Assembly: GCA_958009085.1 (NCBI GenBank)
Contig: OY253674.1
Location: 868,001-932,000 of the forward strand
DNA from: Protoeuglena noctilucae
Lineage: Eukaryota
Length of the DNA: 64,000 bases
Reading direction: 5' to 3'
Under the pieces are notes generated by a model, which searched no databases, was not told where the DNA came from, and worked only from the letters and a program-made list of their open reading frames with translations. The stretch's first letter is position 1. Every line of letters starts with the position of its first letter. Positions 3,123-60,657 of the stretch are shown here, piece after piece. Both the position numbers and the translations under genes were made by a program.

Positions 3123-6100
3123 CTAGAACACGCGGATGATGTCGGGCAAGGCCTTGCGGAGACTGGTGCCAGTGCGGTAGGGCACGGTGCAGTCGTCGCG
3201 AGGGTAGCCCACGGGCATGATGGCGAACACGCGCTCGTTGTCGGGACGGTTGAGCAGCGTGCGGATCTGCGTGGCCGGCGTGGCAATCGGCGATCATCGC
3301 CCCAACCACGTCGGCGGCATGGAATGCAGCGAAGGTTAGCAGCAACAGGCGTGGCGCTTGTAAATACATAACCCAGCCCAACCGTCCACGTGAACTGCCT
3401 CGCCCGCACCCATCACACCTCCTGACCACCCTTCTGCCCAGGCCAGGGCAGGTGCCGAGTCAGCCACGCCGCTCGCCTGCTCGTCGCAGCCGTCCGGCGT
3501 CGTGACAACCGTCGCCAGGTTCGCGTTGTGCAGGGCCGCGGTCAGCACCCCCACGGCCACCCCCACGCTCTTGGTCGCGTGCAGCACGGGCTCCTGCGGA
3601 GCATCAAGCGGCTGCCCCGGCCATCGCCGCTTCCATCGGTGCTCCATCACCACCACCACGTAAGGCGCCTCCTCTAGGTATGGCTTGGAGACGTCCTCTG
3701 ACTCTGGACGCTGCAATGCCTGGATCAGCGGGGCTGCGGGAAGGAAAGGCGAGCGGGGCGTGTAAGCAGCAAGGTGGACAACAAATCAACAACATAGTAT
3801 GGTACACGGGCGTGTGTCCCAGCACTCCAATCAATCGTTACCCTCATCCGAAGCCGCAGCGACCACGCCGTTCAGGCCTCGCTCTGTCCACCCCCACCAA
3901 CCACCGCTCACTTGCTCGCTTCGCCCGCGCTGCCACCCTCCGCTCCCCGTTCTCCCTCTCTTTCGCCTCCACCGCCTCCCGCAGTTGCCGCTTGATCCCC
4001 GCGTCCTGCACCACTAAAAACGTCCACGGCTGCGCGTGCATGCCGCTGGGCGCCGTCGCCGCTGCTCGAATGCAGTCCTCCAGGACCGAGTAGTGGACGG
4101 GGTCGTGGCTGAAGAACCGAACGGAGCGGCGCAAAGACAGGAGCTGGAAAAAGCCCCTGGATGTGGTGTGAAGAGCGGAGGGGATGCAGTGAGAGGGTGG
4201 GGCACTAGAGCAGGGCGGTTGCAGCGACACCTTACATGCAGCGATGGCGCCACTCCCGCAGCCGCACGCCTACCTTGCCCGGATGCGCTGGTCGCGACTG
4301 GGGATGCGCTCCCACACGAACCGCACCGGCTGCTCCCTCTCCCGCCCCTTGCCCCGCCCGCCCGCGGACATCGCCCCCTCGCTCTCACTCGTCTCGCCAC
4401 CCACCGCGCGTCCTGTGCCGGCCCCCTCGGGCGCCGGCGTCACGCCCCGCCGGCCCCGCCGCTTCGCGTTCCCAAGGCTGTCGAGGTCTTGGAAGGCCCG
4501 GAATGGCCGCCACAGCCACTCCCGCCGCACGGACCCGGGGGCGGCCCTCGCCGGGGCCTCCTCGGCCTCCCGCTCCGCCCGGGTGTCCGGCTGCTGCACC
4601 TGCGCCCGGACCTGGTCCATTTCCGCGATGGAGTCGCTGAGGAAGCTGAAGCGCCACGCGGCGTTGGACGGGCCCGACCCCGGCGACCCCGGTGAGGGCA
4701 TCGAGAAGGCCCCGGGGGGCTCGTCGCTGTCGGAGGGAGGTCCGGCGAAGGACGCCGCCTCGGACTCGCGGTCGCGGCGCGCCTGCTGCGACAGGGAGGC
4801 CTCCACCATGGGCTCCTCTGCCATCAGCGCCAGGGCCTCCTCCACCGCTGCAATGCAAGGAGAGGTGGAGGACACAATTGAGCTGAGACAAAGCGAGGTA
4901 GAAAGTTAAACAGTTGAGTTGACACAGTAAGGATCGAAGATCAAGTCAAGTAGATAGTCATCTACTTGGCAGGGATGCACGGCGGGGCATGCTGCGTGGA
5001 CGCTGAGAGCATGCTGCCTCACTCTCAGCGGTGCCCATGGAGGGGCGGACCGTGAGGGTCGCCTGGGCCGGGAGGTCCTCCGCGACGCCTCTGGGGACGT
5101 TGTCCCAGCTCCCGAGGGCATCCGCGCGATCCCGCTCTTGCATCTCCCGCTCCCGCTCCCGCTTCCTGCACAGGGGGTGGGGTCAGCGCAGGTGCCGCAC
5201 AGTGGCACACGCAGGCTTGGGTGTTACAGCCGGGTGCCGGCAGAGGATTGGGCAGGGCGCTTATGCAGGCAGCGCGATGGGAATGCGAGACCAGTGTGAG
5301 GGTGTCACAGGCGGTCAACAGCAGCTGGGAGCCGCGAGCCCTCACCGCGCCTCCTTGTCCGCCTCCTCGTCTCTCCCAACGAGGATGACGTTCAGGACCC
5401 CCACGGACACGATCACCGCAATCCCCAGGCACGTCTGCGTCAGTTCCTCCTCCACGCGGCTCACGATGAAGATGTCACCCAGGTCCTGCGGGCGCGTAGG
5501 GGCGTCTCGTGACCCATAAAGCGGATGAGGTGGCGACTGAGACGCGCCAGCCGCGGGGCAGGCCGCTGCAACCGAGCGCAGCGCCCGCGATCCGTACCCA
5601 GAGACCCCGCCAGGTGAGCACACCACCCAGGAGCTCCAGCAGCGAAAGACCGACGCCACGCCAGTACCGGCGACTCGACAGCCTGGCCCGAGATCCTTCC
5701 GGGATGCGCCGGATCACGAGGGCACGCAGGGCCCGCGACACGCGGGCTGTGACGGGCAGCGCCTCCGACAGCCTCTGCCTGGGCGCGTACCCATTCACTC
5801 TGCGCAGTAACCGGGATACTAGCGTCGCACGCGCGGCTGCGTCCGTCGCTCGCCGCGCGGAATGCACTTGGCAAATGCGAACACTGGTGAACGCGCAGGC
5901 ATTCCCCGGCAGCCATTCGAGACGCCGCAACGACGGGCGCCAACAATAGCAGCGGCCGTAATTCACCCGGCCGACAGCCTGCCGGGGATATCGCTCTCCC
6001 CGTCGCTGCCCCCATCGGCCCTCCCCGCCCCGGCCGCAGGACGCCCATTCGTCCTCTGCGCTTCGTCCCTGGCCGTGGCACGCAGGGCACGGATGCGCAC

Positions 6101-6178
6101 AGGAGGCTGCAATCGGCCGACGAGGATGCCGTGCCGCACCCTGCCGCATCCGCATCGCTGGGGTGCAGCCACGCCCAT
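3123..6178 (-). CDS. Iodotyrosine deiodinase-like FMN nitroreductase with long N-terminal extension (transit-peptide-like start, two hydrophobic helices); about 8 exons
   Basis: Spliced motifs RRSVRFFS, TAPSGMHAQPWTF, KPYLEEAP, ALHNANLATVVTTP and IRTLLNRPDNERVFAIMPVGYP match the IYD subfamily of nitroreductases. All joins are phase-consistent; the last intron (3267..3476) is GC-AG. The start codon is uncertain. Confidence 0.75.
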
Positions 6179-6665
6179 CGCGGCCCACGGCCAGCGCAGT
6201 GCTTCGCGGCCGGATGGCCGGGTGCGCTGCACCCTCCAGCACCTGTCGCTACTGTACTACAGTCCCAGAGCGCTGATTACAAGCCGCGGGAGCGTTCTGT
6301 CAACAATAAGCGGCACCCTGGGTTGTCCTCGCCGGCTAACCTATGGCTTGCTTCCCCCATTTTCATATGAAGAGATCGTGCGGGGTGCTCGAGCGGGTAG
6401 GTTATGGCGTGACCCAGTCGGACCGCAGCCCGAGTCGGAGAAGGGAAGCGAGCAGGGCCTACCTGCACCAGTTGCTTGCGTCAATAATCTTGATTGGCCC
6501 GCAGCCAGAATCTCCCCTGTCAAACGTGCGTGGTTGCTGAGTTGATCAGAAGTTGGGCCAGCGCCTCGTCTCCATCATTTGCCTTCCTTGATCGGGCTTC
6601 GCGGATTGGCGAGGACTCAGTGACGCTGTGTCCGGGTGGCCCGGCGCCCGATCCCGGTGGCTGCC

Positions 6666-8290
6666 ATGGCGTCGTGGCTCGGGGCGCTCCCCAAGCCCAA
6701 GCATGACACGGATGGGTTTGGGGGCTTCCGTCCCCCCCCCGTCCTGGCCACTGCGGACCAACTGAGCCATGCCAAGGAGCCGCCGCCCTATGGGAAGCGG
6801 CGCAACTACGTTCCCCGCACGTGAGCTCGCGCACCCAACCGCCGGCGAGCCAGGCCCGAAATCGGCGTGCCTGCGTCGTCTTCGGCACGCTGTCGTTCGT
6901 CGCTCGCCGCTGGCCGCCCGGAATACGCCATGGTCGAGCCGGGGGGCGCGTTTGGCGTGCGTTCGCGTGCGCGACCAAGCGTCCGCGCGCCGCGCGCGCG
7001 AAGCCGGTGCCGATGCCTCTTCGCTGTCCTGTGTCGCAGTTCTGAGGATTTCGGTGATGGGGGCGCTTTCCCGGAGATCCACGTGGCCCAGTATCCGCGG
7101 AACATGGGTCGGCGGGACGCCAAGGCAGCAGGCGCGGGCGCCGAGCCGCGCGCAGCCGCTGCGGGTCTCGCTCGCGCGTGTTAGGGCAGTTCATCGCCTG
7201 TGGACGACTTCCTGACTCCCACATCGCCCCCACATTGCCCATCCAAGCGCAGGCAAGACGCTGGCGCTGACGGTGGGGACGGACGGGACGGTGAATTACG
7301 ACGACGTAGTGAAGCAGGGCGGCAACAAGGGCCGCACGGTGCACTCCAAGTTCACCGCGCTGATCCCGAAGCCCGACGCGGCCAAGGACGCCTCAAGGCC
7401 CGATGAGGAGGAGCAAGAGAAAGTGGCCAAGGAGACGCAGGCGGCGCTCGACGCGGTGCTGGGCAAGAAGCTCGCCGTGCTGCAGACCAAGGCGGTGCCG
7501 AAGCAGCCGGGCGCCCCGGAGCTCATCAAGTGAGGCACCCGCGCCGCATGCGATCCCGACACGTTAGGGTCTCTCAACAGAGCTCTCGCTGGCGCCACCG
7601 CGTGTCCCCGGCGCGCCCCGCCTGTGGAATGATGTCCGACTTAACACTCGTTTGCCTTGACTCCCCAGGTACACCCCCGCCAACCAGTCCCGGGAGTTCA
7701 ACTCGGGAGCCGGCCAGCGCATCATCAAGATGCACGAGGCACCTGTGGACCCCCTGGAGCCGCCCAAGTTCCGCGTGAAGAAGGTCCCTCGGGGCCCCGG
7801 CTCGCCCCCCCGTGCCCGTCATGCACTCGCCGCCCCGGCCGGCGACCAAGGCGGAGCTCGACGACTGGAAGATCCCGCCTTCGGTGTCCAACTGGAAGAA
7901 CCCCAAGGGTTACATCATCCCGCTGGACAAGCGCCTGGCGGCCGACGGGCGCGGGCTGCAGAGCACGCTCATCAACGACAAGTTCGCTGCTTTCCAGGAA
8001 TCCCTCGCCATCACCGGTGAGACCCAGTGCGTGCCCAGTCGAGAGATGACCNNNNNNNNNNNNNNNNNNNNNNNNNNNNNNNNNNNNNNNNNNNNNNNNN
8101 NNNNNNNNNNNNNNNNNNNNNNNNNNNNNNNNNNNNNNNNNNNNNNNNNNNNNNNNNNNNNNNNNNNNNNNNNNNNNNNNNNNNNNNNNNNNNNNNNNNN
8201 NNNNNNNNNNNNNNNNNNNNNNNNNNNNNNNNNNNNNNNNNNNNNNNNNNNTTCGGGATCGACTCGTTCCTCACCGACGGCAAGAAGTGA
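6666..8290 (+). CDS. SKIP: SNW/SKIP (Prp45) spliceosomal protein, interrupted by an assembly gap
   Basis: Motifs EDFGDGGAFPEIHVAQYP, DPLEPPKF and WKIPPSVSNWKNPKGYIIPLDKRLAADGRGLQ. The C-terminal FGIDSFLTDGKK* follows the gap. One apparent +1 frameshift lies in the C-run at 7805..7811. Confidence 0.93.
8052..8251. other. Assembly gap (200 N) inside the SKIP gene
   Basis: Run of N. The missing SKIP C-terminal half suggests the real gap is longer than 200 bp. Confidence 0.97.
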
Positions 8291-17580: not shown

Positions 17581-20500
17581 TCACCGCCTCCACTCCGCCT
17601 CCACGCCCCCCAGCACCCCCGTGCGCACCAGGCTCGAGGACAGCTGCAGCGCCCCCACCTCGTGCCGCCCCAGGCCCATGCCACCTGCGCCCGCACCCGT
17701 GTCATTGTGGATGCCCCGCACCAGCTGGGCGTCCGTGGGGGCCGAGAGGCGCAGGAAGTAGGGCAGCGGGTCGCCCTGCCGCTGCAGGTGCATCTTGAGC
17801 GCCTTGGCCCCGAAACTCGACTGCAGCCGACGGTGCAGCTGCCTTATGTCGGAGATCTGGTCCGCGTCGTCGTGGCGCTTCAAGGCCCTCATCGCCTCCG
17901 CCACCTTGATCCGATTCTCCCTCGTCCCGATCGACCGGATCTGGTCCGCGGCTTTGACGCGGGTCGACGACGCCCCCAGCATCGGAGCTGCGAGGGGCGA
18001 GGGATAGGGACGGAGATGAGTGCTTGCAAGCGCATGCTGCGCAGATGAGGTAAGAGTGCGCTGCGATGGCAGGTCTGCTAGCGCAGGGTGCAGGACCTGT
18101 GCAGTGGACATGGGCACCCTGCAGCCCAGGCCAGGCCCCTCCGTGGCTCACCCGTGTCCCAGACCTGGGGTGCTTTGCCCCTCTGCATCTTCTCGTAAGC
18201 CCAGGGGCTCGCCATCGCAGCGTCCCGCCTTTTCTGAATATCCGCGCGCCGACGGAAGGTCCGGGCTCCGGCAGCCGGGGCGGGGGGGTGGGAGCCCGGT
18301 GCACCCGGCGTGGCCTCCTGCAGACATCACGGCAGTGCTATTATGCGCCAAACGCTGTCGCCAAGCGAGCTATCAGCTGCCGAAGCTACCCCAACTACCT
18401 GTGATGGACAGCGAAGTCCAAACGTCCCAGCGCGCAGCAGCCAGCAGTCTCGCTATTCCCAGGGCCTCACCGCAGCTGTTCGCAGCATGCTGTCCTTTCT
18501 CGAGGGTTTCCCCTGCACCGACCGCGCCTTGTCCATGGAATTCTGCGACGGCGCTTTGCTGCTCCGGCGGTGCGGTGACGAGGGCTTGGGCTTGGGCGAG
18601 GCCGCCAGGGCGCCGTTGGGGGGGCCGGACAGGAGCTCAGAGGACTGCGAGGGTGGGGGGTGAAGAGGGGAGTTTGCAGGGGACTGGCTGAGGCGGAGGG
18701 GCTGACTGCTTGATTATGGGTGAGGAGAGGTCATGCATGCATGAGAGGGTCATGGGTGACAAGAGAGGGGCAGCAAGGCAGGGTGAGTGATGAAACGCAG
18801 TTGATCTGGAAAGGAACAGTAGGTGCCCTGCAAACGCAGGTGCTGGGTGGCCGCCCGCATCAACTGTTGGAACACCACGCACCAGTGCGCCGGGCACCCG
18901 CACTGCACCTGCCTGCACCCTCGCTCCCCGCCTCACCAGCAGCAGTCGGTCGGGCGCCAGAATGCCGTCGATGTCGTCCTCAGTGACGCTCAGCGCAATG
19001 GGCATCCTCCCCAGCTTGCGCATGTGCTCCATGATGTCGAGCCCCACCACGTCCCCATTCGCCCGGGCACGCTCCCTTTGGTTCTGGAATGACCCAATCG
19101 TGGCGCGCTTGCGGATCTTCTCAAAGTCCTCGGCGCCGCTCTGCAGGGGTGGCGGTGACGGCGGTGTGAGAGCAGGCGAGGTGAGACCAGGAGAGGTGAG
19201 AGCAGGAAGGGCGACAGCAGGTGCAAGCACGTCCACTGTCCACCCCCACCCACTCCCACACGCCACACGCCACGCACCCCCACCCACACCCACTCACGTC
19301 CACTTTGAGCCTCTGCGCCAGCTCCACGACCTCGGGCCCGTCCGCCGTGTCAAACCGCCTCGCGGCCCTCTGCACGACGAGCCCCTGCTTGAGCGCCTGC
19401 ACCACCCGCGTGTGGTGCTGCATCATGTGCCCCACCTCCACCTCGATCACCGGGCCCGTCATGTACCCGCCCCGGGGCTTGTGGCTGAAGAAATGGACGT
19501 CCATGAACTGGCTGCCCGTCACCGCGTCGTTCAGGATCCCCTGCAAATCCCGCATCGCCTTGTCCCCGTCGCCCGCCGCCTCCGCGGGAGGCTCCTCTGC
19601 TTTCGCGTCCCCTTTGGCCACCTCCGCACCCTCGCCCGCGGCCCCTGATGGCGGCCCAGCCTGTGGCCCTGCCACCACCACCGTGCGATGCGGCTTGAAC
19701 GTCGGCCGCGGGGGACTGCTGGATGGGTCCAGGGACCCCTACGAGGTGGAAGCAAAAGGGGGGTTAGGTAACGTCACCCGCCCCTCATCTCACCCGCACC
19801 TCCCCACTGCGCCCCGCCCGCCCCACAGCCCCTCACCTGCCTCCCCGCCCGCGCCCTCCGCACGCGCACCAGGTACCTGCGCAGCATGCGCACCAGCCGC
19901 GCCCGCTGCTCCTCGCTCAGCCTCCCCATCGCCTTCTGCATCTTCCGCCGACGCTCCGTGGCGAACTTGTACCCGTCGATCCAACTGGTGGTGCTCGTGC
20001 CGCGGCGCAGGTTCGTGGATTTGGGATCCACGATGCCCGCCACGTCCATCAGCAGCACCTCCCCGGCACTCGAGTCATAGCCGCGGCTCCACACGGACGC
20101 CGAGGCACCGCGCGTGTGGGACATCCCCGCCCAATGCTCCTCCGCCGCGCTCGCCACGCTGCTGCGGCGCGGCCCTCGCCCCACGCGCTCCCCCACCGGC
20201 CGCGGCGAGACCGGGGCGCTGGCCCCCGCCGTCGCGTAGAAGCGCTTGCAGGTGCCCGGCTGGCCCCCGCACAGCGACACCTGGGGCTGCCGCCGGCCGG
20301 GGCTGCCCGCCTCCCCCGGCCCCTCGCTGCTCGTCCCCGCGGGGCCGGTGGACTCGAAAGGATCCGGCACCGTCTCCCGGTCCGCCAGCGCCGACTGCAG
20401 CTCCCATATGAGGGGTTCCATGCGGTTGGTGGCGTGGCGCACGAACTTGTAAGGCGGCAGCATGCCCCGCTCCGTCAGGGCGTCAAACGCGTGGCCACCC

Positions 20501-22404
20501 TCGTTGAACGCCGCCACCAGCTCCGCGGGCGTCAGGGCCAGCTTGGACCCATTCTGCAAGGTCAGAGCGAAGGGAGGAGGGGTTGCAGGGTGCGACACCC
20601 GCTGTGCATGTCCCGACCGCAGCTGACGATATGGACGGTCCTGGCCCCTTCCTCAGCTGATGCAGTCATCCACCTCCCCTCATCCACGCGCCCTGCCATC
20701 CACCTCCCCTCATCCACGTACCTTGTCGTCCACCTTCCCTCATCCACGCACCTTGTCGTCTGCCGCCCCCGCTCCGTCGCCCCCAAACGCGATGCGCCTC
20801 TTTCGAGGGTCACCCTGGGCCACGTCGATCGTCGCCCCCGCCCCAATCATCGTCACCATGTCGGACTGCACAACACAGAAACACTCTGGCAATTTTGGGG
20901 CACCGGGGTGGCCTGGTCAGAGGCCGTGCAGCGTGCCAGACTCAACAGAGGGTGCCCAGCCCCAATTGCTGTAGCTCATACACTGCTCTTCGACCACATA
21001 CTGCTTCTCGATCAAGCACAGCGCCGCTCTCTCACAAGGGACTGGTTCTGCCGGTCCAGCACCGCCGCGAGACAGTTGGTGAGGCGCCGTGACTTCTGGA
21101 CCATGTAGGCCTCCCACAGGGCGCGGTCCGTGGAGTCCGGGCGGATCATCCCCTCGCTGGGCACGCGCTTGCCCTCCTGCCCGGTGCGCATGCGCTGCGC
21201 CACGGCCGCTATCACCGGGGCCCGACGGTGGCTCTGCCCAATGGCCGGCTGCCCCACGCGCCAGGAGCCCCGGGGGACCTCGCCTGTGCCGCTCTCGAAT
21301 GCCTCCTGCAGCACGCGGGCGAGGGGAGGGGTCAGCGAGATGCATGTGCGGGATGGAGATGGAGAGAGATGACGGTGTTACCGGCGTAGCGCTTGCTTGG
21401 AAGGGAGGGAGATGCCGAGAGAAGCGGGCGTGACACTGCGTTTTGTATCACAAGACAATCTCTGCGGCGTCAGTAACACACCCAAGCCCCATGGCAGTCA
21501 TTCGTCTCACCTGCAGGTCGGCTTGCTCGGTAGCGGTCGGGGACGGCACGCGCTCGATGGCCGGGTGGGCGGGGGGCGGAGAGGCGCGGCCCGCGTGCGT
21601 CCGACGATCCGCCTGGCGCTGCCGCTCCCGCCGCCGCGCCGACGCCGTGCGCTCGCGCTCCGTCGCGGCATCAAGCTCCGTTGCAGAGATGACCGTGGCA
21701 GAGGCCCCACTCAGGGGCCGCCTGGGCAGGGAGCCCCGCAGCGAGGAGCGGGCCGGCCCCGCCGCCGCGGACTCGAGGGCGGCCGCGGCGCTGGGAGGCC
21801 TCGCGACGGGGGCAGCGGGGGCGGCCAGGACGTCCTTCGGGAGCACGGGCGAGGTGGGGCGGGGACGGGGCGAGTGCGGGCGCGGGATGTCCTGGGGCGC
21901 AGGCCGGGCCCCTGACTCTGCGAGAAAGGAGACATGTCGGTGGTGGCTCACTCGGCTGCTTGGCACAGCACTCTGCACGCCACTGGCCAGACTGCATGGC
22001 TTGCCGCTGCCGGTGCCACCCTCGCCTGGAGGCGCGGGAGACTCGCGGGCGGGCAAGTTCTCCGCCGCCCACATCTCGGTGCGCGGCTGCCGGGCGGATA
22101 TCGGGCGCGCGGTCGTCCGGGAGGTGCCACGGTCCGGGGAGGTGGGGCGGGGCCCCAAGGCATGCGGGCCGCGGTACGGCCACAGCTGCGCGGGCTGCCC
22201 GTCTGTCCTCACGGGTTCTAACCATGCGGCGGCAGGTAACGGAGACCCGGAGGCCTTTTCCACGTCAGGAAAGCGCGGGGAAAAGTGTTGCAAAGCCCTC
22301 CCGATCTCGGAGGATGGAGTTGCCGGCGCGTCTCTGGGCGCGGCAGATAACGAAGGCGGAAGTGCCGTCACGGGGCGCCCCGCGACAGGCTCCGGCGCCG
22401 CCAT
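17581..22404 (-). CDS. Large multi-exon protein of unknown function (about 9 exons)
   Basis: Phase-consistent GT-AG exon chain from MAAPEPV (22404) to the stop at 17581, with globular-looking segments (RMEPLIWELQ; WIDGYKFATERRRKMQ; SQFMDVHFFSHKP). No family recognised. Confidence 0.6.
20666..20761 (-). repeat. 30-bp tandem repeat x3 that includes the exon end and 5' splice site
   Basis: On the minus strand: GACGACAAG|GTGCGTGGATGAGGGAAGGTG, then GACGACAAGGTACGTGGATGAGGGGAGGTG, then GATGGCAGGGCGCGTGGATGAGGGGAGGTG. Confidence 0.85.
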
Positions 22405-23106: not shown

Positions 23107-26100
23107 TGGCGCAGCCGGGGGGTCTCGCAGAGGAGCATCACGAGCGCCTTCGCGAACTGGCTGAGCGCATGAAGGCCTATACATCGCGAAAGGCGGATCT
23201 GCAGGCCGCAGCGGACATGGTTCAGAAGGGGCAGGCCGTGCCTTTGCGACACGGCACCATCGAGGCAAGCCACGCTGTGTGCGCGTGCCGGGCGCTGCCT
23301 CTGACACCGAAGTGCCGGCGAATATAGTGCGATCAAGCTCACGCGCCGCAGGGCGTGCCGCCTGGGACGACCCTGACCGGCAGGGCTTCGCTCATGGTGC
23401 TCGGGATCCACGGCCACTATTACACCGGCATCAGCGCGCCGCCTGTGGGAGGTCGGAGGGAGGATGAGTTCGCGGAACATCCGGACCTGTCCGCGTTCGC
23501 GGTCGCGTTGAACGGGGGCTACGAGGAAGACGAAGACAGCGGGGCGGAGTTCACGTACACAGGTGACGCGCAACGGGAATATCAGGAGGCTTTCCTGTCA
23601 AAAAGATGTCCAAGGGACTGAGAGCTTCGACCCGACGCTTCGGTCCCTCCCTTTGCTCCCAGGCGTGGGCTTGAAGCCTCGCCAGGAGTGGAAGGTGGGC
23701 AATTACGCGTTGATGCAGAGCTGGGCGACGGGGACTCCCGTGCGCGTGGTGCGCTGCGAGAAGCAGAAGGGCTCTTCCCCACGATACCACTTCGACGGGT
23801 GCTATCGCATCACCGCCGCGTACACCAACTGCTACCAGTTCAAAGACCGGCCTCCCATCTACCCTCTTCGGGACAACGCCTATCGCCGATGCATGTTCCG
23901 ATTGGAGGCCATTCCGGGCCTCGCCGTGGCCAAGCCTGTCGCCCAGGTGAGACGCGGTGGGTCGTGGGCTGGCGGTGTGGGTGCGACTCGATTTCGACTC
24001 GTGGGCGACGCTTTGGCGTCTCCCAGCAAGCCGCGGCGGCGCAGACTGTGTTTGTTAAGGGACGACTTTGATTGGGCATTCATCTGCACTGTCGCTGTGA
24101 CTGTCGTGTCATGATGCGCTGCAAGCGCCCTGTGTCTGGCGTCCCCGTCTCAGGTCGTGTTCAGCAAAGCCAGGCACCACCACGTGGCGATGCGGGCCGC
24201 GTTGCCTGCCCGTCGGACGCTGGTGGCCAAGAAGGACGGCGATAGGAAGCGGGGGCGGGAGGAGGGCGGCAGCGGCAGGGGGCGGAAGCGGAGGGCAGTG
24301 GGGGATCGCAAGGCTGGGAAAGAGGAGGCTGAAGATGGGGAGGGGAGCGATGAGGGAGCTGGGGTGGATGGAGAGGGAGAGGAGACGAGGGTGGTCGGGA
24401 GGCGGGCGCTGGGGCGCGCGGCGCGGGAACGGAAGGGGCTGCTGTGCGAGGTGAGGCACGGGGTGCGAGCGTGACGAGTGCTGGCACACTGCACCCCTGC
24501 TTGTAACACGTCCTCTGAACAGTCCATCTGCAGCACTTAAGTCCCACAGCCCTCGCCTTATCTCATATGCACACCGGCACTGACCAACTTGGCATTGACC
24601 AGCTGGGCAATGAGCAGCTGGCGTCCTCTTTCGCAGGACATTACCGGTGGCCTCGAGAAGGTTCCGATCCCGGCATTCAACGAGGTGGACGACGAGCCCT
24701 TCCCCACCTTCACCTACATCCCCGTCTGCTGCTGGAGCGACGAGGCCGCGGCCATGCTACGGCAGCTGAAGCCCTACGTGGGGTCGCGCGGCACGTGCGC
24801 GCGAGGTGAGGGGCGTGCGGGGCATGGGGTGAAGTGGCCAGTGGGGGTGGTGAGATGGGCTGAGCTTGCTTGGGGTTATGCTGGAGCGGGGTCGACCGGC
24901 GGCAGCCGTTCAATGCCATCCCACACCCGCCACTGCGTTCTGATATGATAGTAAGCAATTGACCCTGCTTGCCCTGCCCCCTGCCGCAGCCAAGTGGGAG
25001 GAGCTGTGCCGGGGCACGTCTGTGTCGATGCCCTACCGGGGCGGGCTGTTGACCGAGGCAGGGACGGAGGTCCTGCCCATGGAATGCGGGCCGCAGTGCG
25101 GGGCCCGCCGCGCGTGCCAGGGCACCCGCCACCTGTCCCGGGGCGTGCAGCTGCCATTGGAGGTGTGTAAGACGAAGGGGAAGGGGTGGGGCGTGCGGTG
25201 CGCGCAGGCCATCCCCATCGGCAAGTGCATCTGCGAGTACGTGGGGATGCTGAGGTCAGGTGAGCGCATCTGCTGGTTATGTGGGAATGACCCGTGTCAT
25301 CGTGATCAAGTGCAGGGTCGATCCCACTCATCCAGCCGGGTCCCCCTTTCGAATCTCGCTGACGTCCTCATAACTCCAGAGTCACTCTCGCACCTCGTCT
25401 CCCCCCGCAGAGGAGGAGCCCGACGCCATGCAGGCCCGCGCGAAGATGCAGGGAGAGCCCGGCAGCATTGACGCGTACATCTTCACCCTCAACTCGTACG
25501 TCATCGCAAAGCGTTGGGAGGAGGCGCTCAACGTGATCGAGGGCCAGGCCGTGGAGGACGAGCACGTGCGGGCATTGGTGGAGCGCGCGAGGAAAGCGAG
25601 GAAGTGGGACGGCGTGGTGAGCAGGGGGGATGCGGGAGGGAGGGAGTGGTGGTGAGCGCGAGTGGTGGTGAGCAGTGAGGGGGAATGGAGGGAGTGGTGA
25701 GCGGGAGATCGGGTGTGCGAGGAGTAGGAGTGAGGGAGGAGAGTGCGAGTGAGAGATGGGAGTGGCCGGCCCCCATCACCTCCCTCCTCGTGGCTTGCCC
25801 GCAGCGTGGCGCCATGGCTGCTGTGGATGGGGAGGAGACGCGCCTGGCAGCGGCAGAGGCGGTGCAGAGGACGGGTGGGCTCTTCCAACGACGGCACGCG
25901 ACGGGGCCGGGCGAGGGTGGCAAGGGTGGCGTGGGTGGTGAGGGTGGCGAGGGTGGCAAGCGTGGCGCTGGTGGCGCCGGCGGGCGTGGGGTGGTGGCTG
26001 GGGCAGTCGGTGATGTTGGGGCTGAGGCTGACGTGGAGCTGGACATGAATATGGACTGCCTCAGCTTCGATGGGGTCAGCGCGGACGGCCTCTTTGGCGG

Positions 26101-27888
26101 CGGGCCGTGTGGGCTGGAGCCGGCCAGTGACGGAAATGGGGAGATGAGGGGTGACGTCGAGGGGGGTGCGAAGATGGGTGGTGAGGTGGATGGGAATGGC
26201 GAGATGCATGGTGAAGCGGATGGGAATGGGAAGATGGGTGGCGAGGCGGATGGGGTTGCGGGCGCAGAGGTGGTGGCAGGTGCCGACGCTGATGCCGGCG
26301 TGGATGTGAGGGCGGGCCCTGTGTTGGGGAAGGAAAGCCCAGAGACGGTGTCGGTGAATTTCGGGCAGCAGGGGGCCAGAGAAGCGGGGGGTGATGGGCT
26401 GTGTGCGGGCGATGGGGAGGACCAGGTGAAGACGGAAGAGGGCGACAGGAAGGGGCCACTGAGCGTGGCGGTGGTGGCTGCGGAGGGGCAGGGGGTGCAG
26501 GCGGCGGCAGGGGTGGGTGGCGTGCAAGCAGAGGGAGTGGGTGGGGGGCGGACAGAGGGAGTGGGTGGCTGTGAAGAAAAGGCAGGGGCGGGTGGCAAGT
26601 GTGAGGAGAGGGTGAAAGCGACGCAGACTGACAAGGCTGGTGTGGGGCAGGCAGAGGGGGCAGGGGTGGGTCAGAAGAGCGAGGGTGCGGGGCAGGGCAA
26701 TGGGGCGGGCGCGTGCGAGGGGAGGGAGGGTGCGGGGCAGGCAGGGGCCTTCGGGCGTGCTGAGAGCACGGGTGGCGTGGCACGGCCTCGACCGGGTGAC
26801 GTGGCGCGTGCATTCGAGCAGACGAGCTCTGGCACGGAGAGCGACAGTTCCTCTGACATTGAGATCGTGCCCATGAAGCCAAGGCATTTCATTCGCCGCG
26901 AGGGTGGGTCAGGGACCCTGCCTGGGCCCAAGGGTGGCAGTGAGGGCGGCGCGAAGAGTGAGGGTGGCGTGGCAGGGGCGCGACGTGGGGCGAAGGCGGG
27001 GCAGGGCGCTAAGGGGGCTGGGGGCAGAGGGGGCAGGGGCCGGGGTCGGGGCCGGGGGCGTCGGAAGGGCGCAGGCTGGGACTCCGATAATGATTCAAGT
27101 GGGTCAGCTAACGACGAGAGCAGCATGGAAGAAGAGGAGGTGGTGGATGGGGAGGAATGTGCCCCTTACCACGTAGACGTGTTGCGGATTCTGGCGGAGC
27201 TGCCCGAGGCATTGCAGGCCACGTGAGTTGGGGAGGGGTGCATGATGGCACGTGGGTTGGCGATGGGTGCATGGATGGTGGGGAGAGCCTGTGGCAGGAA
27301 GGGCGCTTGGTCTGCCGTGAGCCCTTGTGCCAAGGGATGGTAAATTACTGTGTCAAGGATGTTTGACTTCTCCCATGCCAAAGAGCCTTGACGTGGGCTT
27401 GATAGTACAACATGATTGTATCATCACAGTCGAGTAACTTCCCTCGCAGCATGGTGGAGCATTTCGCTTTGCTCTGCGTTGATGCCAAGGATTACGGCAA
27501 CGTGGCGCGCTTCACCAACCACAGCTGCGACCCCAACTGCGTCGTCCAGGCAAGTGACCATCGCTCGTGTCACATGAGTGCCCATCTGTACATGTCATCA
27601 TGTGAACCTGCTGCAGTCCCGCCCATCACTGCTTTGCGCCGTGCGTCGCGAGCCCTTGGCTCGCCTCCCACCTACCCATGCTGTCCTCTTCTCTCGCAGG
27701 CCGTCATCACGCCCGAATGCAACAAGGTTTTCTACCGCCTCGGCATCTTCGCATCGCGTGACATACCGGCGATGGAGGAGCTCACATACGATTACAATTA
27801 CACCGCAGAGGCGATGGAGCGGGTCATGGGGGGCTGCCGGTGCGGGGCGCCCAATTGCATGCATCGTTCCAAGCAGGGGCAGGCGTAG
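23107..27888 (+). CDS. SUVH: SUVH-type histone H3K9 methyltransferase (SRA/YDG + pre-SET + SET + post-SET) with a large insertion in SET
   Basis: SRA motifs GVPPG...NGGYEEDEDSGAEFTYTG and PVRVVR...YHFDGCYRI; pre-SET start DITGGLEKVPIP; SET motifs KGWGVR...ICEYVG and DAKDYGNVARFTNHSCDPN...ELTYDY; post-SET CRCGAPNC. Nine introns, two of them GC-AG. Confidence 0.9.
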
Positions 27889-29316: not shown

Positions 29317-31122
29317 ATGCGCCTGATTACGTTCAACATCAACGGCATCGGGACTGCCCAGGAGAGCATCAAGTCGCGGCACGGAAGCCTGGGGAAGTTC
29401 TTCAGCGAGGTCCTGAACGCGGACGTCCTGTGCCTACAGGCGAGCGCTGTTACCAGCTCTGTAAACGTATTCGCGCGCAATCAGTTGTGACACACATCAC
29501 ATTACAAAGCCTGCGTCGCAGGAGACGAAGCTGTCGGAGGACAGGCTCACGAAAGCGCTGGCGTGTGTCGAGGTGTGGGAGCGCGGAGCCGCTGGGTGTT
29601 TCGCGGTGTCTCGCCGCTGAGACTGAAGTACTGGCGTCTCTCCTCGCAGGGCTACGAGAGCTTCTGGGCGATTAGCAAGACGAAGAAGGGCTACTCGGGG
29701 GTGGCGACGTACGTGAGGGAGGGCCTCGCGGCGCAGGAGGCGCTCATCGACTTTGTAAGCGCATCCGGGGGACCAGAGGGGAGGTCCATCGCCACGTTTC
29801 ACCAGAACCTCGTCATCGTGAACGTGTACGTCCCGAATGGGTGAGGGCGTCGCACCTGACGGGGGCAAGGAGGAGGCTAGTCCATTGTTAGGCCATTGCC
29901 TGGGCCTGCTGGTCGCGACGGGCAGGGTGTGGTACGATGCTAAGTGTGGTTCCTCAGTGCACTTGCCCCTGCAATCCCCAGGGGCGAGCCGGAGCGGGGG
30001 AAGGGACCGTCGAGCAAGCCGAGGCTGGGGTACAAGATGGCGTTTCTGACGGAGCTGCGGGAGCGCTGCGACGCCTGGGTGGCACAGGGCAGGGACGTCC
30101 TGCTCGTTGGGTGAGGCATACCCCCGTACCTGCGCCAGACATGAGATGTTGTCGATACGCCGTCTGCAGCCACGCTGGTTTGCTCGAACGCACGCAGAGA
30201 TCTGAACGTGCCCCGAAGTCAATTGGATGTCTACGCCGAGCTGGACGTGGCGACGCGGTACACGCCGGCCGAGCTCGCCTGGGTGAATGGAATGGCGGAG
30301 AGCTACGTGGATGTATTCCGCGCCAAGCACCCCGGGCAGCCGGGGCACTACACGGTGTGGGACGAGCGGCGGTCCCTGCGGCCGGTCAACAAGGGCCTGA
30401 GGATAGACTACGTGCTTGCGTCCGCCGGCCTGCGGGATGCGGCGGCGGCGGGAGAGGCGCGCATCCTGGCAGGGCAGGACCCCATTTCCTGGAGTTGGTC
30501 GGACCACGCCGCAGTGCTCTGCGACTTCCCTGGGCTGGAGGACCGCGTGCGCGCGGCGGACGGGCAGAGGCCGTGCGCGGGATCGTCCCGATCGGACGCC
30601 CGATTCTCTTCGCGAGGGCAGCTGTCCCTGACAAGCATGTTCGCAAGGGCGGGCGCGGGTGGTGCGGGTGGCCGTGGCGGGGGTGTCGCGGGGGGCGGGG
30701 CACGAGGGGCACCGGGTGTGACAAGAGGAGAAGTGGGTAAGGAGGCGGAGGAGGGTGGGTTGAAGGAGGCGGAGGTGGGGTTGAAAGAGGCGAGGGAGGG
30801 AGACAGGGGGGGAGATGCGGGTGCGTCGACGGTCTTGCTGGCAGCGGGCAGTGAGACGGCCAGTCAGAATGGGCGGGGAGCCGGGCCCGGCAGGATGGAA
30901 GCGGGTGCAGAGGGCGGGGGTACGGCGGGGGTACAAGGGGGGGTAGTGAGCGAGGGCAGGAGGACAGAGGGAGCGGGGAAGGTGGGAAAGCGCAAGGCGG
31001 TGCAAGAGGCGGGGCCAGCGCGGAAGAGCAGGGGTGGTGGGAAGGGGGCAGGGCGAGGGCGTGAGGGCGGCCGAGGGCGTCAGGAGAGTCTTACCAAGTT
31101 CTTTGGGTCGCAGGGGGACTAG
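29317..31122 (+). CDS. APE2: ExoIII-family AP endonuclease, APE2/Apn2-like, with C-terminal PIP box
   Basis: Motifs MRLITFNING, VLCLQ|ETK (GC-AG intron 29440..29521), GYSGVATYV, NVYVPN, VG|DLNV, GLRIDYVL and SDHAAV; C-terminal QESLTKFF. Confidence 0.88.
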
Positions 31123-31157
31123 CATAGATGCGTGCATGCGGTTCAAGAGGTAAAGCG

Positions 31158-32505: not shown

Positions 32506-35500
32506 TCAGCCCGCGTGGGCGCCCGCTGGGAGCCGCTCGACGGCGTCGATGACGTGGCTGCTGCCGGCCCCGGGGAACAGGTCCCCGTGCACCAGCGTGG
32601 GCGACGCGTTGCTCGACACGTTGGGGAGGGCCATGTCCCCGTCGTCGGGCAGACGGTCCTGCATCAGCTGCTTGCTCAGCGCGTCGATCTGCGGACGGGA
32701 AGCCGACGCGACGCGATCGCGATCCACTCTTAGTGGGGCCGGGGTGCGATGGGTCGCATGCTGCCCCGCGTCACGTTGCACTGCGGTTGATTCCCCCATC
32801 TCACCTTGGCCCCCTGCTCCTGCAGCGCCGCCTCGACGTCCACCGCGTCGGGCCCGTCGTCCGCGTGCCGCACCGACGTGGCGCCGCCCTCCGCTGCAGC
32901 CGCGCCCGCCACGGCGCCCTCGCACAGCGCCGTCGGCGCTGCCGACCCGACCGGCACGGGAGCCTCCATGGCCGCCGGCTCCCCGTTCCCCGAGAAGCCC
33001 GCGGCGACGGGCGCCATCGCCGGCGCCGCCCCGGCCCCCGCGAGCCCCAGCAGCGCCTCGATGCGCTCCAGGCGCACCGCCACCGACCGCTCCAGCACCG
33101 TCATGGCCTCGAACACCCGCCCGATGGCCCTCTCCGCCGCGTCCGCCCGCGCCGCGGACTCGACGGACATCTGCTCCACGCGGCCCACCAGCGCCGCCTC
33201 CCGCGCCAGGACCTGCTCGTACCGCGAGGCCAGGTCCGACACCACCGCCTCCGCCGCCGCACGCGCCTCCTGCCCCAGGCCCTGCATCTCCGCGCGGAAG
33301 CCCCCCAGCTCGGCGCGCGTCGCCTCGTACGCCGCCTGCGCCTCCCGCTGCAGCGCCGCCAGGTCCCCTGCCTGACGGTACCCCTGCATCACCGCCTGCG
33401 CGTCCTGCTTCAGCTGCGGGAGCGGAGGGCGGCGCCGCGTTCCGACATCGTTAGGAATAAACTTCGCGCACGGCACCGCATCCCGAGCAGGTCGTCGGCT
33501 TGAGCGGCCCCGCACTGCACGCTCCGCCCCGGAGTTCCCCGCACTGTTGCGCACTCGCCTTGGTCATGAGCATGCGCATCTGGCGCGCCTCGTTGGCGTC
33601 CACGTTGCCGGGCATCTCACGCGGCGGCTGGTCGACGCGCTCGATCCAGTAGATCATGTGCCCCTGCTGGTCGTGCACGCGGCGCACCACCTGGCCGTTG
33701 ATCACGCTGCTGTCGGGCATGTGACGCAGCAGGTGGTCCAGAAGACCTGCGAGCGGGCCGAGCCACGCGGCGTGACGTGGAGGCGGCGGGCGTGGCCACC
33801 CAACAGCCCTGATACACGGTGAGTGAGTGTTCCGACCATACACAGTATGTGCCACCCCGATGACACCTCACCCGTGTCGCCCACGACCTTGCGGGCCTCC
33901 TCCCTCAAGCTGGGCCTCAGCACAGCGCGGTCAGGAGACGTGGCCCCAATCACGTGCATCACGTCCATCAGAGAGCGCTGGCCCGTCTCGTACCGCTCGC
34001 GCGACCACTGCGGACGCGCACCACAGCGGCCGCAGTCAGCCCCTGCCATGTCAGTGCCAGTGCAGCCCCGCGCTTCCCTCCCAGCCCGAAGCAGGGATCT
34101 GGCAGCGCCTCACCCGGCTGCGCAGGTCCTTGGGGAGCAGGAGCACGTGCTCGTCCCGGTCGTCCGCGGCCAGGCTGGGCGCCGACGCGGGGCTCTGGAG
34201 GCCTCGGGGCGCCTCCTGCGCGCTCCCGGCGGCGCGGACCTCGTATCCCTCCTCGCCCAGCCGCGCGCGCTTCATGGCGCGGGCGGCGCCGTCGTCCGCC
34301 CAGGCCAGGGCACTCTCGGGGGCCACCGGGGCAGCCGACGCGCCTTGGGGCTCGGCATGGAGTGGTCCCGCCGCGGTGCCGGTGGCGGGCTCCTGCGCCT
34401 CCGCGGGCGCCACGGGTGTGGCAACCGTGTCCGGCGTCGCCTGCCCCGGCGCGGAATGCGCCGAGGAGGGGCGCTCCAGCACCTCCCCCGCCGCGGACTC
34501 CTGCACCACCACCTGCCCGGCCCCCGCCGCCGCCTCTTCCGGCAGCTTCTCCAGCGCTGCCCTCGCGGCCTTCATCTCGGCCTGCAGGGCCAGAGCCTTG
34601 GCCCCTACGGACATCTCCAGGTCCCGGACGTAGGCCGCCACGGCCCCCGACACGCTCTGGTAGGTGTGGAGGTTGAGCATGCGCATGGCCCAGCCCTTGC
34701 GGTCGGCCGAGCTCCGCGCGGCGCCCTTGACCGGCACGGCCAGCGCGTCGTCGAGCTCGACCATCGTCACGGCCACGTCGCGGATGGTGCGGGCCGCCAG
34801 GGACCGCCCCACCCACGCGGCCCGGCGCGAGGGCCACTCGGGGACGAAGGCGTCGGCGGGGATGGCCTTCTCGACGGCGAGGAGCGTCTCTACCAGAGAC
34901 TGCGCCGTGTTGAGGCCGCCCCGGGAGGACGTGACGCCCTCGCGCACCGACCCGCTCCCGGAGCGCGGGAGGGCGGGGGAGGCCGGGGCGGAGCACTTGG
35001 TGCCGGAGGACGGGAGGGGGCGCGCGGCCGCCGCGGGCTTGGGTTTGGGAGCCGACTGGGGCGTCCGGGTCTGCGGGCGTGGGCGGCGGGATGCAGCGCA
35101 TGGGTGGTGCGCATGGCAGGCAGCGTGCATGGCGACCAGTACCATGCTACCATGCCATACGCAGTAGCGGCGGGGTTCTGCAGGCGGCTTCGGCCTCACG
35201 TGTTTCATCGACCCAGCGGCATGGAGGAGCAACTCTGCCGCGCGCGCCTCCTCGGCAGCAGCCATGACCCCGGCGTGCGAGGGGTGGGCCCCCTTGCTCA
35301 AGGCCGCCATGAGGGGGTCCCCGTACGCCGAGGGAGTAGGGGGAAGGAACCCTGGCAGACCAGGCATCGAGAACTGCGCGCGGGGGGCGGCAAGAGCGGG
35401 TTGGGAGTGGCGCTAAGGATGAAGGGTCGTGGACATCAACACAACGCCGGGCTCGCGAGGGTGGGCACGCACCTGGGGCGCGGTGCGGAGGTACTCGGAG

Positions 35501-36683: not shown

Positions 36684-37253
36684 GAGCGTGGGCTGGGCCT
36701 GCAAGCGAAACGGAGGTACGAGGACGCTGAACGGGCACGGAGAGACGCCCCGGGTTTTCATTATGCAATAAGTTGGCGCACGGACCAGGTTGCGGCAGGC
36801 GAGCGCCGCGGCAGCCGTGGATCCTCGCCTGCATTCCAAGGTCACCGCCGAACGGCGGAGTTCGGGACAGCATGACGGCGGATCCAGTTGCTCTATCTAG
36901 ATGTGAACAGCGCGTGCGAGAAAGGCGCGCAGCGTGGCTTCTCTGAGCTACAACGACTCATCAACGACCACAGAACATCTCAACCTGTATCTGCTGCCTA
37001 AGACGATCATCCGACGATCGATTAGTGCGCCGCCACGATCGCGAGGGGGGCGATCCACGCACCAGGGCCGGCAGTCATGCCCTGACTCGGGGATCGTCGA
37101 CGGGATCGGTCAGCCATCCGCGACGAGGGAGTGCCGTGTCGACACGAAAGGCATCAGAGATTGTCAGCAACAAGAGATCGCTCTGCAGGCGCGGCGCATT
37201 GCCTCAGGACCCGCCGTCGCTCCGACCTCGTCCCGGCACGCCTCCCGCGCGAG

Positions 37254-39508
<2,255 letters not shown>

Positions 39509-39926
39509 ATCATTCGATGCTGAAGCAGTGCTCTGGGGTGCTCTCTTCGTGAGAAAGCGATGCGAGACGCATTCGCTGTTTTCAACGTGTGAGCGGGAGC
39601 GCTCGGGGGGTTCAGGCTATCGTTTCACTACTACCCGCAAAAGGGGGGGCCAACGCAAAGGGCTCTTGCCGTGGAACACCCCGCGACCACCGCGGGCGGC
39701 ACCCAGGCGCCCGGTGCTCCGCGACTCCGGCACCACGCCAATCGCTGAGAACACGCGTGCCGCACGTGTGCCTCCGAAGCTAGGACACAGCAGACGCATT
39801 GGGGCCTTCTGTCAGACAAAGCTCTGCCGACGCGCTGAGCAGGAGCGGACGGCGCCGTGTCCGGGCCCTGGGGACCCTGGTTGGGTCTCCGGCACGCCAA
39901 GGCACAAAGCCCAAGGCGCACGCAGC

Positions 39927-43234: not shown

Positions 43235-51474
<8,240 letters not shown>

Positions 51475-58703: not shown

Positions 58704-59090
58704 AGAGCGCTGGGGCCAAGAGCGCTGCGGGGGGACGGGGCTGGCTGGGGCTCGGGCTTGGGTGAGAAAGCAGAGTCGCCGATGCGCCTCTGCTTGCCGT
58801 TCGTCGTTTGCCGCAAGACACGGGCTGCTTACATGACACCGTCCCTGCTCTGGCGTCGCAGGTGGGGCGCGAGGAAGACCTTAGAGGGCAGCGAGGACGC
58901 GAAGCGCACTGTTCGACCGGTGGACATCCTGGATGAGACTGCAATGAGGCGTGACGAGCGATAGGGCGCCCTCCCTCAATGTGACATTATGTTGAAGCGG
59001 GAGGCGAGGCGACAAGTGTGAGAGCTGAAAGAGAGCGAAAAACTTGATGTGCGTTCGTGCGTGCTGCACCTGGCTCTGCATGACTGTGGC

Positions 59091-60657
59091 TCAGCTGGAG
59101 ACAAAGCGGAACTGCTTAAGGGCTTGAACGATGCCCCCTGCGCACGGGCGGCTGGCCAGCAGGATGCGGTCGTTGCCCGCAGCGACCTCGCCCGCCGCGA
59201 AGTTGCGCAACTCGTCGTGCGCGTTAGACACAACCGTCCCGTAGACACCCGGCACCTGCGATGCCACATGGCGGCAGATGGTGGTGACTTGTGTGGTACG
59301 CACAAGGTGTTTACAGGAAGGATCACGACCCACAGAGCGTGCACTGCCGCTCCTCGTGATGCGCCCGTCGCCGCACCGCACCTTGAACAGATCCGCATCG
59401 TTCCCGGAGTCGCCGCACACCAGCACGCCGTTTGTTGGTGCCCCGACGCTTTGCGCCATCGCCCCCAGCAGCCAAGCCAGCGCCTGCCCTTTCCCGGCGC
59501 CCTCCGGCAGCACGTCCACGTCCCTCCCGCCCGAGTAAACGACCTGCACGCGGCCAGGTGACGTGCATGAGAGTGCCTTCGCGTACATTGCAGCATGTGC
59601 TATGGCCTGACATGAGGATTTGGCATGATCCAGCGGTGGTGAATTCGAGCTGAGATTACAGGACGCCAGCGTCTCGCCTTGGCTCTCAGCCCCTCTGCTT
59701 GGAGCCTTGCCCCCAGCTCTGCTGCCAAGAGCATCCCCCTCTCGGCCCCCACTTCCGTCGTGAACGACACCTTGTGAGGCCGCTGCTCCGATTCCTGCTG
59801 AAGGACGAGCTCCGGGAACGCAGAGGCCACTGCCAGGCAGCGGGCCCTGTCCCACCCTGCGATGACCGGAGGGAGCCTTGTTGGAACGACATTGCACAGC
59901 CAGCAGAAATGCGCTGAACTGCGGATGCACCTAGCTTCCACATACGCATAATCCACACTCACCGTGGGAGAGGTGCGCGAGCCACTCCTGGTTGAGCTTG
60001 CATGCCCCTGGCGACGTGTCACCCGCGTCACCGCCTGCAAACTCGTAAATCTCCGTCCCCACCGAGCACACGAGGAGGTCCGGGTGCTGCAACGACGACG
60101 GGCAGGGCTCAGGCCGGTGAGTAAACGACCGCAATTGGATCGATGCCCTGTGCCCGGCAAAGCCTCGGGTCCCGTGCGTCAGCGGTGCTTTGTTGCACTC
60201 ACCAGCAATGCAGGCGCAAACTCGCGCAGCTTTTGATACATCTCCAGCGATCTCCCGGTGGAGAAAATGAGAATCGAGTCTCCGGCGAGCTGGTCTTTCC
60301 ACAGAGCGTTGAACTCCTTCAGCAGCGCGTGCTCCGGGTCGTTATGGGCCACCTGCACTTGGCGACGAAACGAGCATGTATGACAGTTTCATGGAAGCAC
60401 GGGGGCCTCGCCGGTCGAGCGACGAGGCGTCCGTGGGGAGCTCCGGGGAGCGAGCGTGTTCGGCGAGGCGAGGCGCGCCGCGGAGCGAATCGCGAGTACG
60501 TGGAGGCATGCATCGGGCCCAACCGTATGTAAGGACTTTGTGACGACCACCTCGAGCGACATCGACAGCGCGTGGGCCTGCAGCTGGCTTCGAGGAGACG
60601 CACCATGGTGTGGTCGAGGTCTGAGACCACGACGCATCGTGGCCGCTTGTTGAACAT
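59091..60657 (-). CDS. SPP: Sucrose-phosphate phosphatase (HAD, S6PP family)
   Basis: Motifs VSDLDHTM, FSTGRS, PDLLVCSVGTEI, QESEQRPHKVSF, K|VVYSGGRDVDVLPEGAGKGQAL, CGDSGNDADLF and CAGGIVQAL; 5 introns, one of them GC-AG. Confidence 0.92.

Follow-up and report, generated by a model that had tools for sequence, protein, structure and literature searches.

Frequent GC-AG introns in a GC-rich, intron-dense stretch of the Protoeuglena noctilucae genome

How many introns of a GC-rich genome begin with GC instead of GT, and what keeps such donors functional? The question is raised by a 64-kb stretch of Protoeuglena noctilucae DNA (contig OY253674.1, positions 868,001 to 932,000; hereafter called the window, to which all coordinates refer), which has a G+C content of 67% and carries multi-exon genes tightly packed on both strands. 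An earlier note on this DNA, made from the letters alone, had listed 11 introns with GC donors among approximately 100 and had offered relaxed reading of donor position +2 by the spliceosome and/or GC-biased conversion of T to C as possible causes. Here, these donors were compared with assembled RNA, with protein profiles and structures, and with the output of a gene finder. The results show that GC-AG introns are in use and frequent, and they favor GC-biased substitution at otherwise strong donors.

GC-AG introns of the window

The 11 donor strings of the earlier note were all found at their positions and on their strands exactly as written, and our analysis added one new site, at 36828 on the minus strand. 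These 12 introns, each of which begins with GC and ends with AG, are given below together with one further candidate; a slash marks an exon–intron border or the place where an intron interrupts a peptide. The RNA data consisted of assembled contigs from three metatranscriptome runs of a single study (X1, X2, and X3 in the following), accompanied by one DNA run (X5), and covered the stretch 19800–39700.

3267..3476, minus strand: GC-AG intron in an iodotyrosine-deiodinase-like (nitroreductase) gene, by homology; donor CAG/GCGAGC, acceptor CACGCAG
7132..7252, plus strand: probable GC-AG intron in the SKIP/SNW1 gene; donor CAG/GCGCGG, the weakest of the set
23265..23351, plus strand: possible GC-AG intron upstream of the SRA domain in the SUVH-like gene; donor GAG/GCAAGC, with support for the acceptor alone
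27550..27699, plus strand: GC-AG intron interrupting the SET domain in the SUVH-like gene; donor CAG/GCAAGT; 150 nt, stop-free and in frame
29440..29521, plus strand: GC-AG intron in an AP endonuclease/ExoIII-like (APE) gene; donor CAG/GCGAGC; interrupts LCLQ/ETK
33414..33558, minus strand: GC-AG intron in a gene of no assigned family (called "DYAD" in the earlier note); donor AAG/GCGAGT, acceptor CCGCAG
36699..36828, minus strand: GC-AG intron in the 5' portion of that gene, additional to the earlier list; donor CAG/GCGAGG
37854..37971, plus strand: GC-AG intron in the 3-isopropylmalate dehydrogenase gene (leuB); donor CAG/GCGAGT; explicit RNA junction in X1 and X2
38374..38604, plus strand: GC-AG intron in leuB; donor GAG/GCGAGT; 231 nt, stop-free and in frame
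48905..49119, minus strand: GC-AG intron in a SWR1/SRCAP-type SNF2 ATPase gene; donor AAG/GCGAGT; interrupts GFK/ILTYFGS
50768..50919, minus strand: GC-AG intron in the HSA region of the SWR1 gene; donor AAG/GCGAGT
59544..59677, minus strand: GC-AG intron in a sucrose-phosphate-phosphatase-like (S6PP) gene; donor AAG/GCGAGA; interrupts AK/VVYSGG
61535..61929, plus strand: candidate further GC-AG intron in an EF-hand gene, predicted ab initio only; donor GAA/GCGAGT

Exonic AG precedes the GC at all 11 donors of the earlier list, and AG occupies positions +4/+5 at 10 of the 11, the exception being 7132 (GCGCGG).

Splicing at GC donors in RNA

The junction figures reported here rest on 15 of the 39 RNA junctions, namely those listed, and equivalent cut positions at each junction were resolved before the donor was typed. 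Twelve of these junctions are GT-AG and three are GC-AG (33414–33558, minus strand; 37854–37971, plus strand; 36699–36828, minus strand). The junction at 33558 is explicit in RNA contigs of both X1 and X2 and has GC-AG as its sole resolution, and the junction at 37854 is GC-AG at a shift of +4, with the split codon GCG; both are exact splices at donors that had been proposed from the letters alone. At 36828, also explicit in X1 and X2, GC-AG is the only canonical-type reading among eight equivalent cuts. None of the listed RNA junctions, including that at 33558, occurs in the DNA run X5. These data show that GC-AG junctions are used in mRNA.

Could the C at +2 be an artefact, that is, an assembly error, the neighbor of a true splice at a GT, or the target of C-to-U RNA editing before splicing? 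The in-phase GT alternatives at 23265 and 7132, described below, and the fact that the ab initio finder takes some decoy donors speak for such a reading. Against it, the three junctions are placed exactly by the RNA contigs and lack a GT-AG reading among their equivalent cuts, and at 10 of the 12 GC sites, all except 7132 and 23265, no in-phase GT in a comparable context lies within 90 nt. Furthermore, X5 agrees with the window letters throughout 19800–39700, with no variants, although X5 may be the window's own source. As to editing, the RNA contigs do not span the excised introns, so that it may escape notice. On balance, we regard an artefact as very unlikely.

Two further introns in the RNA-covered stretch were assessed by coverage. 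In X1, the five listed leuB junctions all have a depth of 20.5 and were taken as one contig; its bin depths of 10.2 and 9.23 compare with 10.22 and 9.17 expected from exons only, whereas retention of 38374–38604 would give 15.75 for the bin measured at 9.23. In the SUVH-like gene, contigs of both X1 and X2 break at 27697, with the upstream letters placed elsewhere, which is the spot expected for a junction between 27549 and 27700 with three ambiguous letters, and the X1 bin depth of 6.06 compares with 6.05 predicted for the spliced layout. Coverage and piece boundaries thus fit removal of both 38374–38604 and 27550–27699. Removal at the exact borders is indicated by explicit RNA junctions for three introns and by coverage and piece arithmetic for two, and it is suggested by protein continuity for the other seven.

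Protein continuity across the junctions

To assess continuity, exons were translated and scanned singly, and the profile or chain coordinates were checked across each junction. As a control, this procedure recovered RNA-proven GT junctions of leuB as Iso_dh positions 257/258 and 294/295. At 38373/38605, the Iso_dh match stops at position 156, on the last upstream residue, and restarts at 158, on the second downstream residue, while reading through the intron yields two separate Iso_dh stretches. In the SUVH-like gene, the SET profile covers positions 48–74 in the exon ending at 27549 and 71–105 in the exon starting at 27700, read-through breaks the domain in two, and the terminal exon holds the post-SET CxCGxxxC motif followed by a stop. 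Both introns were confirmed to be stop-free and in frame, as the earlier note had pointed out.

The exons flanking the intron at 3476 fall on consecutive residues of the mouse and human iodotyrosine deiodinase chains (3gb5_A, 146–208 plus two residues, then 211; 4ttb_A, 152–214 plus two, then 217). The spliced model at 29440 is gapless across residues 41 and 42 against two homologues (P0002 and P0003), and both this site and 3476 survived a GC penalty of 4 nats in the gene finder. S6PP positions 92–148 run up to the last residue upstream of the intron at 59678/59543, and positions 149–197 start at the first residue downstream. For the SWR1 gene, 80 metagenomic loci, many of them intronless, were used as relatives. 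Across 49120/48904, SNF2-rel_dom is covered at positions 1–74 upstream and 83–290 downstream, with about seven residues between, and the GFK/ILTYFGS junction is gapless in six of the six alignments listed, which are to intronless relatives. At 50919, the HSA profile (positions 5–57) ends on the final residue of the exon, and the SRCAP chain 6igm_H is matched at 129–182 plus three residues upstream of 50920/50767 and from approximately 188 downstream (approximately 185/188); the first 40 residues after this intron gave no Pfam matches. The junction peptides AK/VVYSGG, LLA-A-IGG, FNTE/IYSE, and LCLQ/ETK were reproduced.

Two of the proposed donors are less secure. At 7132, the exons are contiguous or within 1–2 residues of each other in Prp45 (3jb9_M, 87/88/89), in 8xi2_R (78/79), and in human SNW1. 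Rival in-phase GT donors lie at +33 (CGG/GTCTCG) and +48 (CGT/GTTAGG), both of them weak, and would add 11 or 16 residues. From these alignments, we consider the GC donor moderately supported. At 23265, the acceptor is well placed, in that the SRA profile and the SRA chains of the Protein Data Bank (PDB) start at residue 1–2 of the exon that begins at 23352. The exon upstream of 23265 had no matches in the PDB search, and an in-phase GT donor lies at +12 (GCT/GTGTGC), so that the GC donor here is possible. Altogether, 10 of the 11 sites in the earlier note are at least moderately supported; its view that all 11 are real holds less firmly for 7132 and 23265.

Frequency of GC donors

An exon-chaining gene finder, self-trained on the window, was used to estimate how common GC donors are. 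Started from a naive model, it found 14 of the 15 junctions seen in RNA, and its ab initio models contain 100–111 introns on both strands, some of them on the wrong strand; against these numbers, the earlier count of approximately 100 introns is reasonable, if not exact. At a penalty of 4 nats, nine GC donors were used among 108 introns, and permitting them raised the score by 215. As a control, eight other dinucleotides were offered as decoys at the same penalty, and these were used 0–4 times each, with a gain of at most 43. Without a penalty, 56 GC donors were called, most of them spurious. Extra GC calls at 2545, 15668, 41421, 47285, 48238, and 61195 on the plus strand and at 22025 on the minus strand were not accepted as findings; the call at 2545 sits in an open frame of 823 amino acids, and those at 47285 and 48238 are on the opposite strand to SWR1.

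A high-confidence set was restricted to introns for which both flanking exons have a good coding score that is better than that of the opposite strand. In this set, GC-AG introns number 6 of 64 (penalty 4) to 8 of 64 (penalty 2), or approximately 9–13%; the EF-hand candidate at 61535 is included at 2 nats and absent at 4. The RNA-based share is 3 of 15 (95% confidence interval 4–48%). If GC donors made up 2% of introns, the probability of at least as many as were counted would be no more than 0.003 for every one of these counts. Hence, the GC-AG share here is far above 1–2%, and the figure of about 10% in the earlier note stands. The heptamer AGGCGAG occurs 27 times in the window, whereas a second-order Markov model predicts 18.9 ± 4.2; nine copies serve as supported donors, and the excess approximately equals those nine.

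That gene callers limited to GT would mis-annotate these genes, as had been predicted, was borne out by a GT-only run, which led to truncation, a split, a dropped exon, or a shifted donor at each of the 11 GC sites within modelled genes.

GC and GT introns compared

Comparison of 11 GC donors with 58 GT donors showed that the GC donors have the tighter flanks, in line with the earlier note. A at −2 is present in 11 of 11 GC donors versus 34 of 58 GT donors (p = 0.006), T at +6 in 6 of 11 versus 12 of 58 (p = 0.03), and the combined motif AG/..xAG in 10 of 11 versus 19 of 58 (p = 0.0005). Among the RNA-defined donors, all three GC donors fit the tight consensus and 6 of the 12 GT donors follow AG. 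In other respects the two classes are alike. The GC-AG introns sit in otherwise normal genes beside GT-AG introns that match them in length, composition, and acceptor type: median length is 145 nt for GC and 149.5 nt for GT introns, intron-body G+C is 0.624 and 0.625, respectively, and CGCAG and TGCAG acceptors occur in both. A U12-type donor box is an ATCC-type motif; the GC donors have GCGAG or GCAAG, except for one GCGCG, and none has a U12-like box.

The GT introns have uniform signals of their own, with G at +3 in 58 of 58 and G at +5 in 56 of 58 (GTGAG) and a CGCAG or TGCAG acceptor in 44 of 58; this uniformity comes from a self-trained set and is perhaps somewhat exaggerated.

Four of the GC donors begin identically (AAG/GCGAG), which might indicate a spreading intron family whose members carry a GC donor. 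In Micromonas pusilla CCMP1545, which has such introner elements (D-IE1), these are reported to hold 79% of the GC donors (PMC4815162). In an all-versus-all blastn comparison of 70 introns (E ≤ 1e-3), none of the 12 GC introns matched another intron; beyond donor and acceptor they look unrelated, and their junctions lie at conserved protein positions of unrelated genes. Since no GC intron resembles another intron among these 70, we rejected an introner family as the source, an origin that now appears extremely improbable.

Clear similarity within this set of 70 was limited to two GT-AG introns of different genes, 45013–45367 and 19141–19297 (both minus strand), which have a repeated unit of approximately 55 nt in common, with 78–85% identity in several registers.

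Another way to obtain many GC donors would be an altered spliceosome of this lineage, through the U1 5' end or through U1C, U6, or Prp8 contacts, that reads +2 loosely, such that GC donors are nearly neutral and need no compensation. The high GC share, 3 of 15 by RNA, would fit, as would the unusual consensus of the GT donors (GTGAG, with its invariant G at +3). However, GC donors are significantly tighter at −2 and +6 and for the combined motif, which is a signature of compensation and not of neutrality, and neither GA nor GG donors occur among the 15 listed RNA junctions. The same junctions bear on dinoflagellate-type relaxed donors, where GA would be common too: none of the 15, a small sample, has GA. 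An altered spliceosome is thus unlikely in our view. A more far-reaching version, in which non-repetitive GC introns make up 10–20% genome-wide in an intron-dense green alga, the machinery has shifted so that C at +2 serves almost as well as T, and the introns at 27550–27699 and 38374–38604 are retained on purpose for alternative proteins, seems rather doubtful.

Origin of the GC donors

The explanation that we favor, with a probability of roughly 0.8, is that these are ordinary U2-type GC-AG introns, brought about by GC-biased substitution at +2 and tolerated at donors that otherwise pair well with U1. GC donors would then account for roughly 10–20% of introns in an intron-dense marine alga with 67% G+C. 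Genome-wide G+C pressure (mutation bias and/or GC-biased gene conversion) may repeatedly convert the T at +2 to C, and such pressure, seen in a coding GC3 of 86%, is the most likely source of the high frequency. The C at +2 would survive only where the rest of the donor (A−2, G−1, G+3, A+4, G+5, and often T+6) pairs well with the U1 5' end, with the C·A mismatch at +2 being offset by pairing on both sides, and this selective survival would explain why the AG/GCGAG consensus is tighter than that of the GT donors. The enriched positions (−2 and +6) and the near-invariant +4 and +5 are positions that pair with U1 at the 5' splice site. Classical GC-AG introns, too, reportedly match the consensus more closely at the other donor positions.

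Several points weigh against this explanation or the data behind it. The tight GC consensus may be partly due to ascertainment, because the earlier reader and the gene finder chose GC donors by flank strength and would have missed weak ones. GC-type introns do not lie in GC-richer surroundings than GT-type introns, and GC bias as the cause is a step that we infer. The U1 pairing scheme is general knowledge and not taken from the U1 of this organism. At neither of the SWR1 GC positions do the metagenomic relatives have an intron (75 high-scoring segment pairs span 49119 and 25 span 50919), and hence they give no T-to-C polarity; the best of these loci reach no more than 72% identity in the SNF2 exon. 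At the 50919 junction, five of five relatives have five extra residues nearby, in a variable stretch. The RNA support comes from assembled contigs of a single study, with 15 of 39 junctions listed, and all counts come from one 64-kb window. Finally, the gene finder produces false positives: at a penalty of 2 nats, decoys were used 4–15 times compared with 17 for GC, which entails that at low penalty the finder alone is no proof, and one GT intron of the high-confidence set (35523–35579, minus strand) is contradicted by an RNA contig.

Comparison with known systems

The rarity implied in the earlier note was overstated, as shares of 10–60% have been published for several GC-rich marine algae. 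In M. pusilla CCMP1545, GC is found at 25.6% of all donors and at 9.7% of those that belong to regular spliceosomal introns (van Baren et al. 2016, PMC4815162), whereas the share is 1.5% in both M. commoda and Arabidopsis (PMC4815162). Like the present case, M. pusilla is a GC-rich marine green alga in which the AG acceptor is kept and GT-only predictors missed the GC donors (PMC4815162). Unlike M. pusilla, which has about two introns per gene and most of its GC donors in introner elements, the window has GC introns without a common sequence and about 5–15 introns per gene.

Among the pelagophytes, GC-AG introns account for approximately 14–17% in Aureococcus anophagefferens and approximately 14% in Pelagomonas calceolata, which the authors credit to high genome GC (bioRxiv 10.1101/2024.10.30.620910). 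The GC-AG share and the intron sizes (103–177 nt in these species) resemble those found here (bioRxiv 10.1101/2024.10.30.620910). The pelagophytes differ in being stramenopiles with less than one intron per gene, part of them introner elements, whereas the gene set of the window is of green-lineage type; the introner elements of Pelagomonas carry both GT and GC donors. In Emiliania huxleyi, GC is even the majority donor (56–64%; Feldmesser et al. 2014, PMC4028052), and the authors attribute this share to GC content (PMC4028052). This species is also a GC-rich marine alga (65%) with a canonical acceptor and ab initio mispredictions, and its GC donors were confirmed by RNA-seq and RT-PCR, but GT is still the majority here, at approximately 80–90%.

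In animals and plants, classical U2-type GC-AG introns make up 0.3–2% of introns (quoted in bioRxiv 10.1101/2024.10.30.620910); the present introns are like them in having GC at +1/+2 and an AG acceptor and unlike them in a frequency that is 5- to 20-fold higher. Across kingdoms, splice-site GC correlates with genome GC (PMC7072748).

With comparable or higher shares published for GC-rich marine algae, the window therefore represents another case of a known phenomenon. What is new relative to the published cases is that the introns in this sample are dense and not repeated. The finding adds an intron-rich, introner-free case to the correlation of GC-AG usage with the G+C content of genomes, and such a case allows compensation at other donor positions to be measured without confounding by repeated introns. 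Its value is mainly practical, and it opens no new question: a GT-only caller applied to this organism would give truncated or split genes and dropped or read-through exons in about every second multi-exon gene.

Gene content and other features of the window

Pfam searches, run window-wide on single-exon translations, identified the families SKIP/SNW, an SRA + pre-SET + SET (SUVH-type) methyltransferase, an ExoIII/APE-type nuclease, 3-isopropylmalate dehydrogenase, ParcG, a DCC1-like protein, a SNF2/HSA/Helicase_C SWR1-type ATPase, a metallophosphoesterase, an ABC-D type transporter, OPA3, sucrose-phosphate phosphatase, and an iodotyrosine-deiodinase-type nitroreductase. The genes carry about 5–15 introns of approximately 150 nt each. 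Because the set includes an SRA-SET protein of SUVH type and S6PP, and because the top PDB match of SKIP is 8xi2_R, ahead of animal and yeast chains, the gene complement points to a green-lineage alga as the host. Transcripts matching the window at 99% identity or more are present in marine metatranscriptomes. An Rfam scan of the 64-kb window gave no matches at all, and hence no U1, U6, or other small nuclear RNA gene.

The ParcG (parkin co-regulated, axoneme-associated) gene lies at 39927–41761 on the minus strand, and its presence suggests that the organism may build a flagellum at some life stage. The SKIP/SNW gene is interrupted by a 200-N assembly gap (8052–8251) directly after the exon 7821–8016; this exon corresponds to positions 53–116 of the SKIP_SNW profile, and the remaining domain falls at the gap.

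In the SUVH-like gene, a 1.4-kb Gly/Ala/Glu-rich low-complexity exon (25805–27222, plus strand) falls between the exon with the start of SET (24990–25259) and the part encoding NHSC and the post-SET end (27450–27888), and the SET domain of this protein therefore has a very long insertion. In the same gene, X1 and X2 contigs depart from the genome at 24392 (plus strand), within the predicted exon 24154–24450, for 255 letters found nowhere in 19800–39700. A chimeric contig may account for the departure, as may a different isoform or splicing to a distant exon that is absent from the models.

The large exon of the APE gene (30145–31122, plus strand) is 100% identical to a database protein of 299 amino acids (P0001). 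This protein, recorded on three contigs with lengths of up to 24 kb, resembles an open-reading-frame call made without splicing from a six-exon gene, and it was left out as a check of annotation.

The transcript of the minus-strand gene that contains the introns at 33558 and 36828 extends to about 37012, and the RNA contigs of the plus-strand leuB gene begin by 37134 (window 36827–37134); the two genes are therefore divergent and at most about 120 nt apart. At the other end of leuB, an X3 RNA contig ends at 39598 (plus strand) and continues as a run of A, approximately 90 nt beyond the stop-containing exon, which is probably the leuB poly(A) site.

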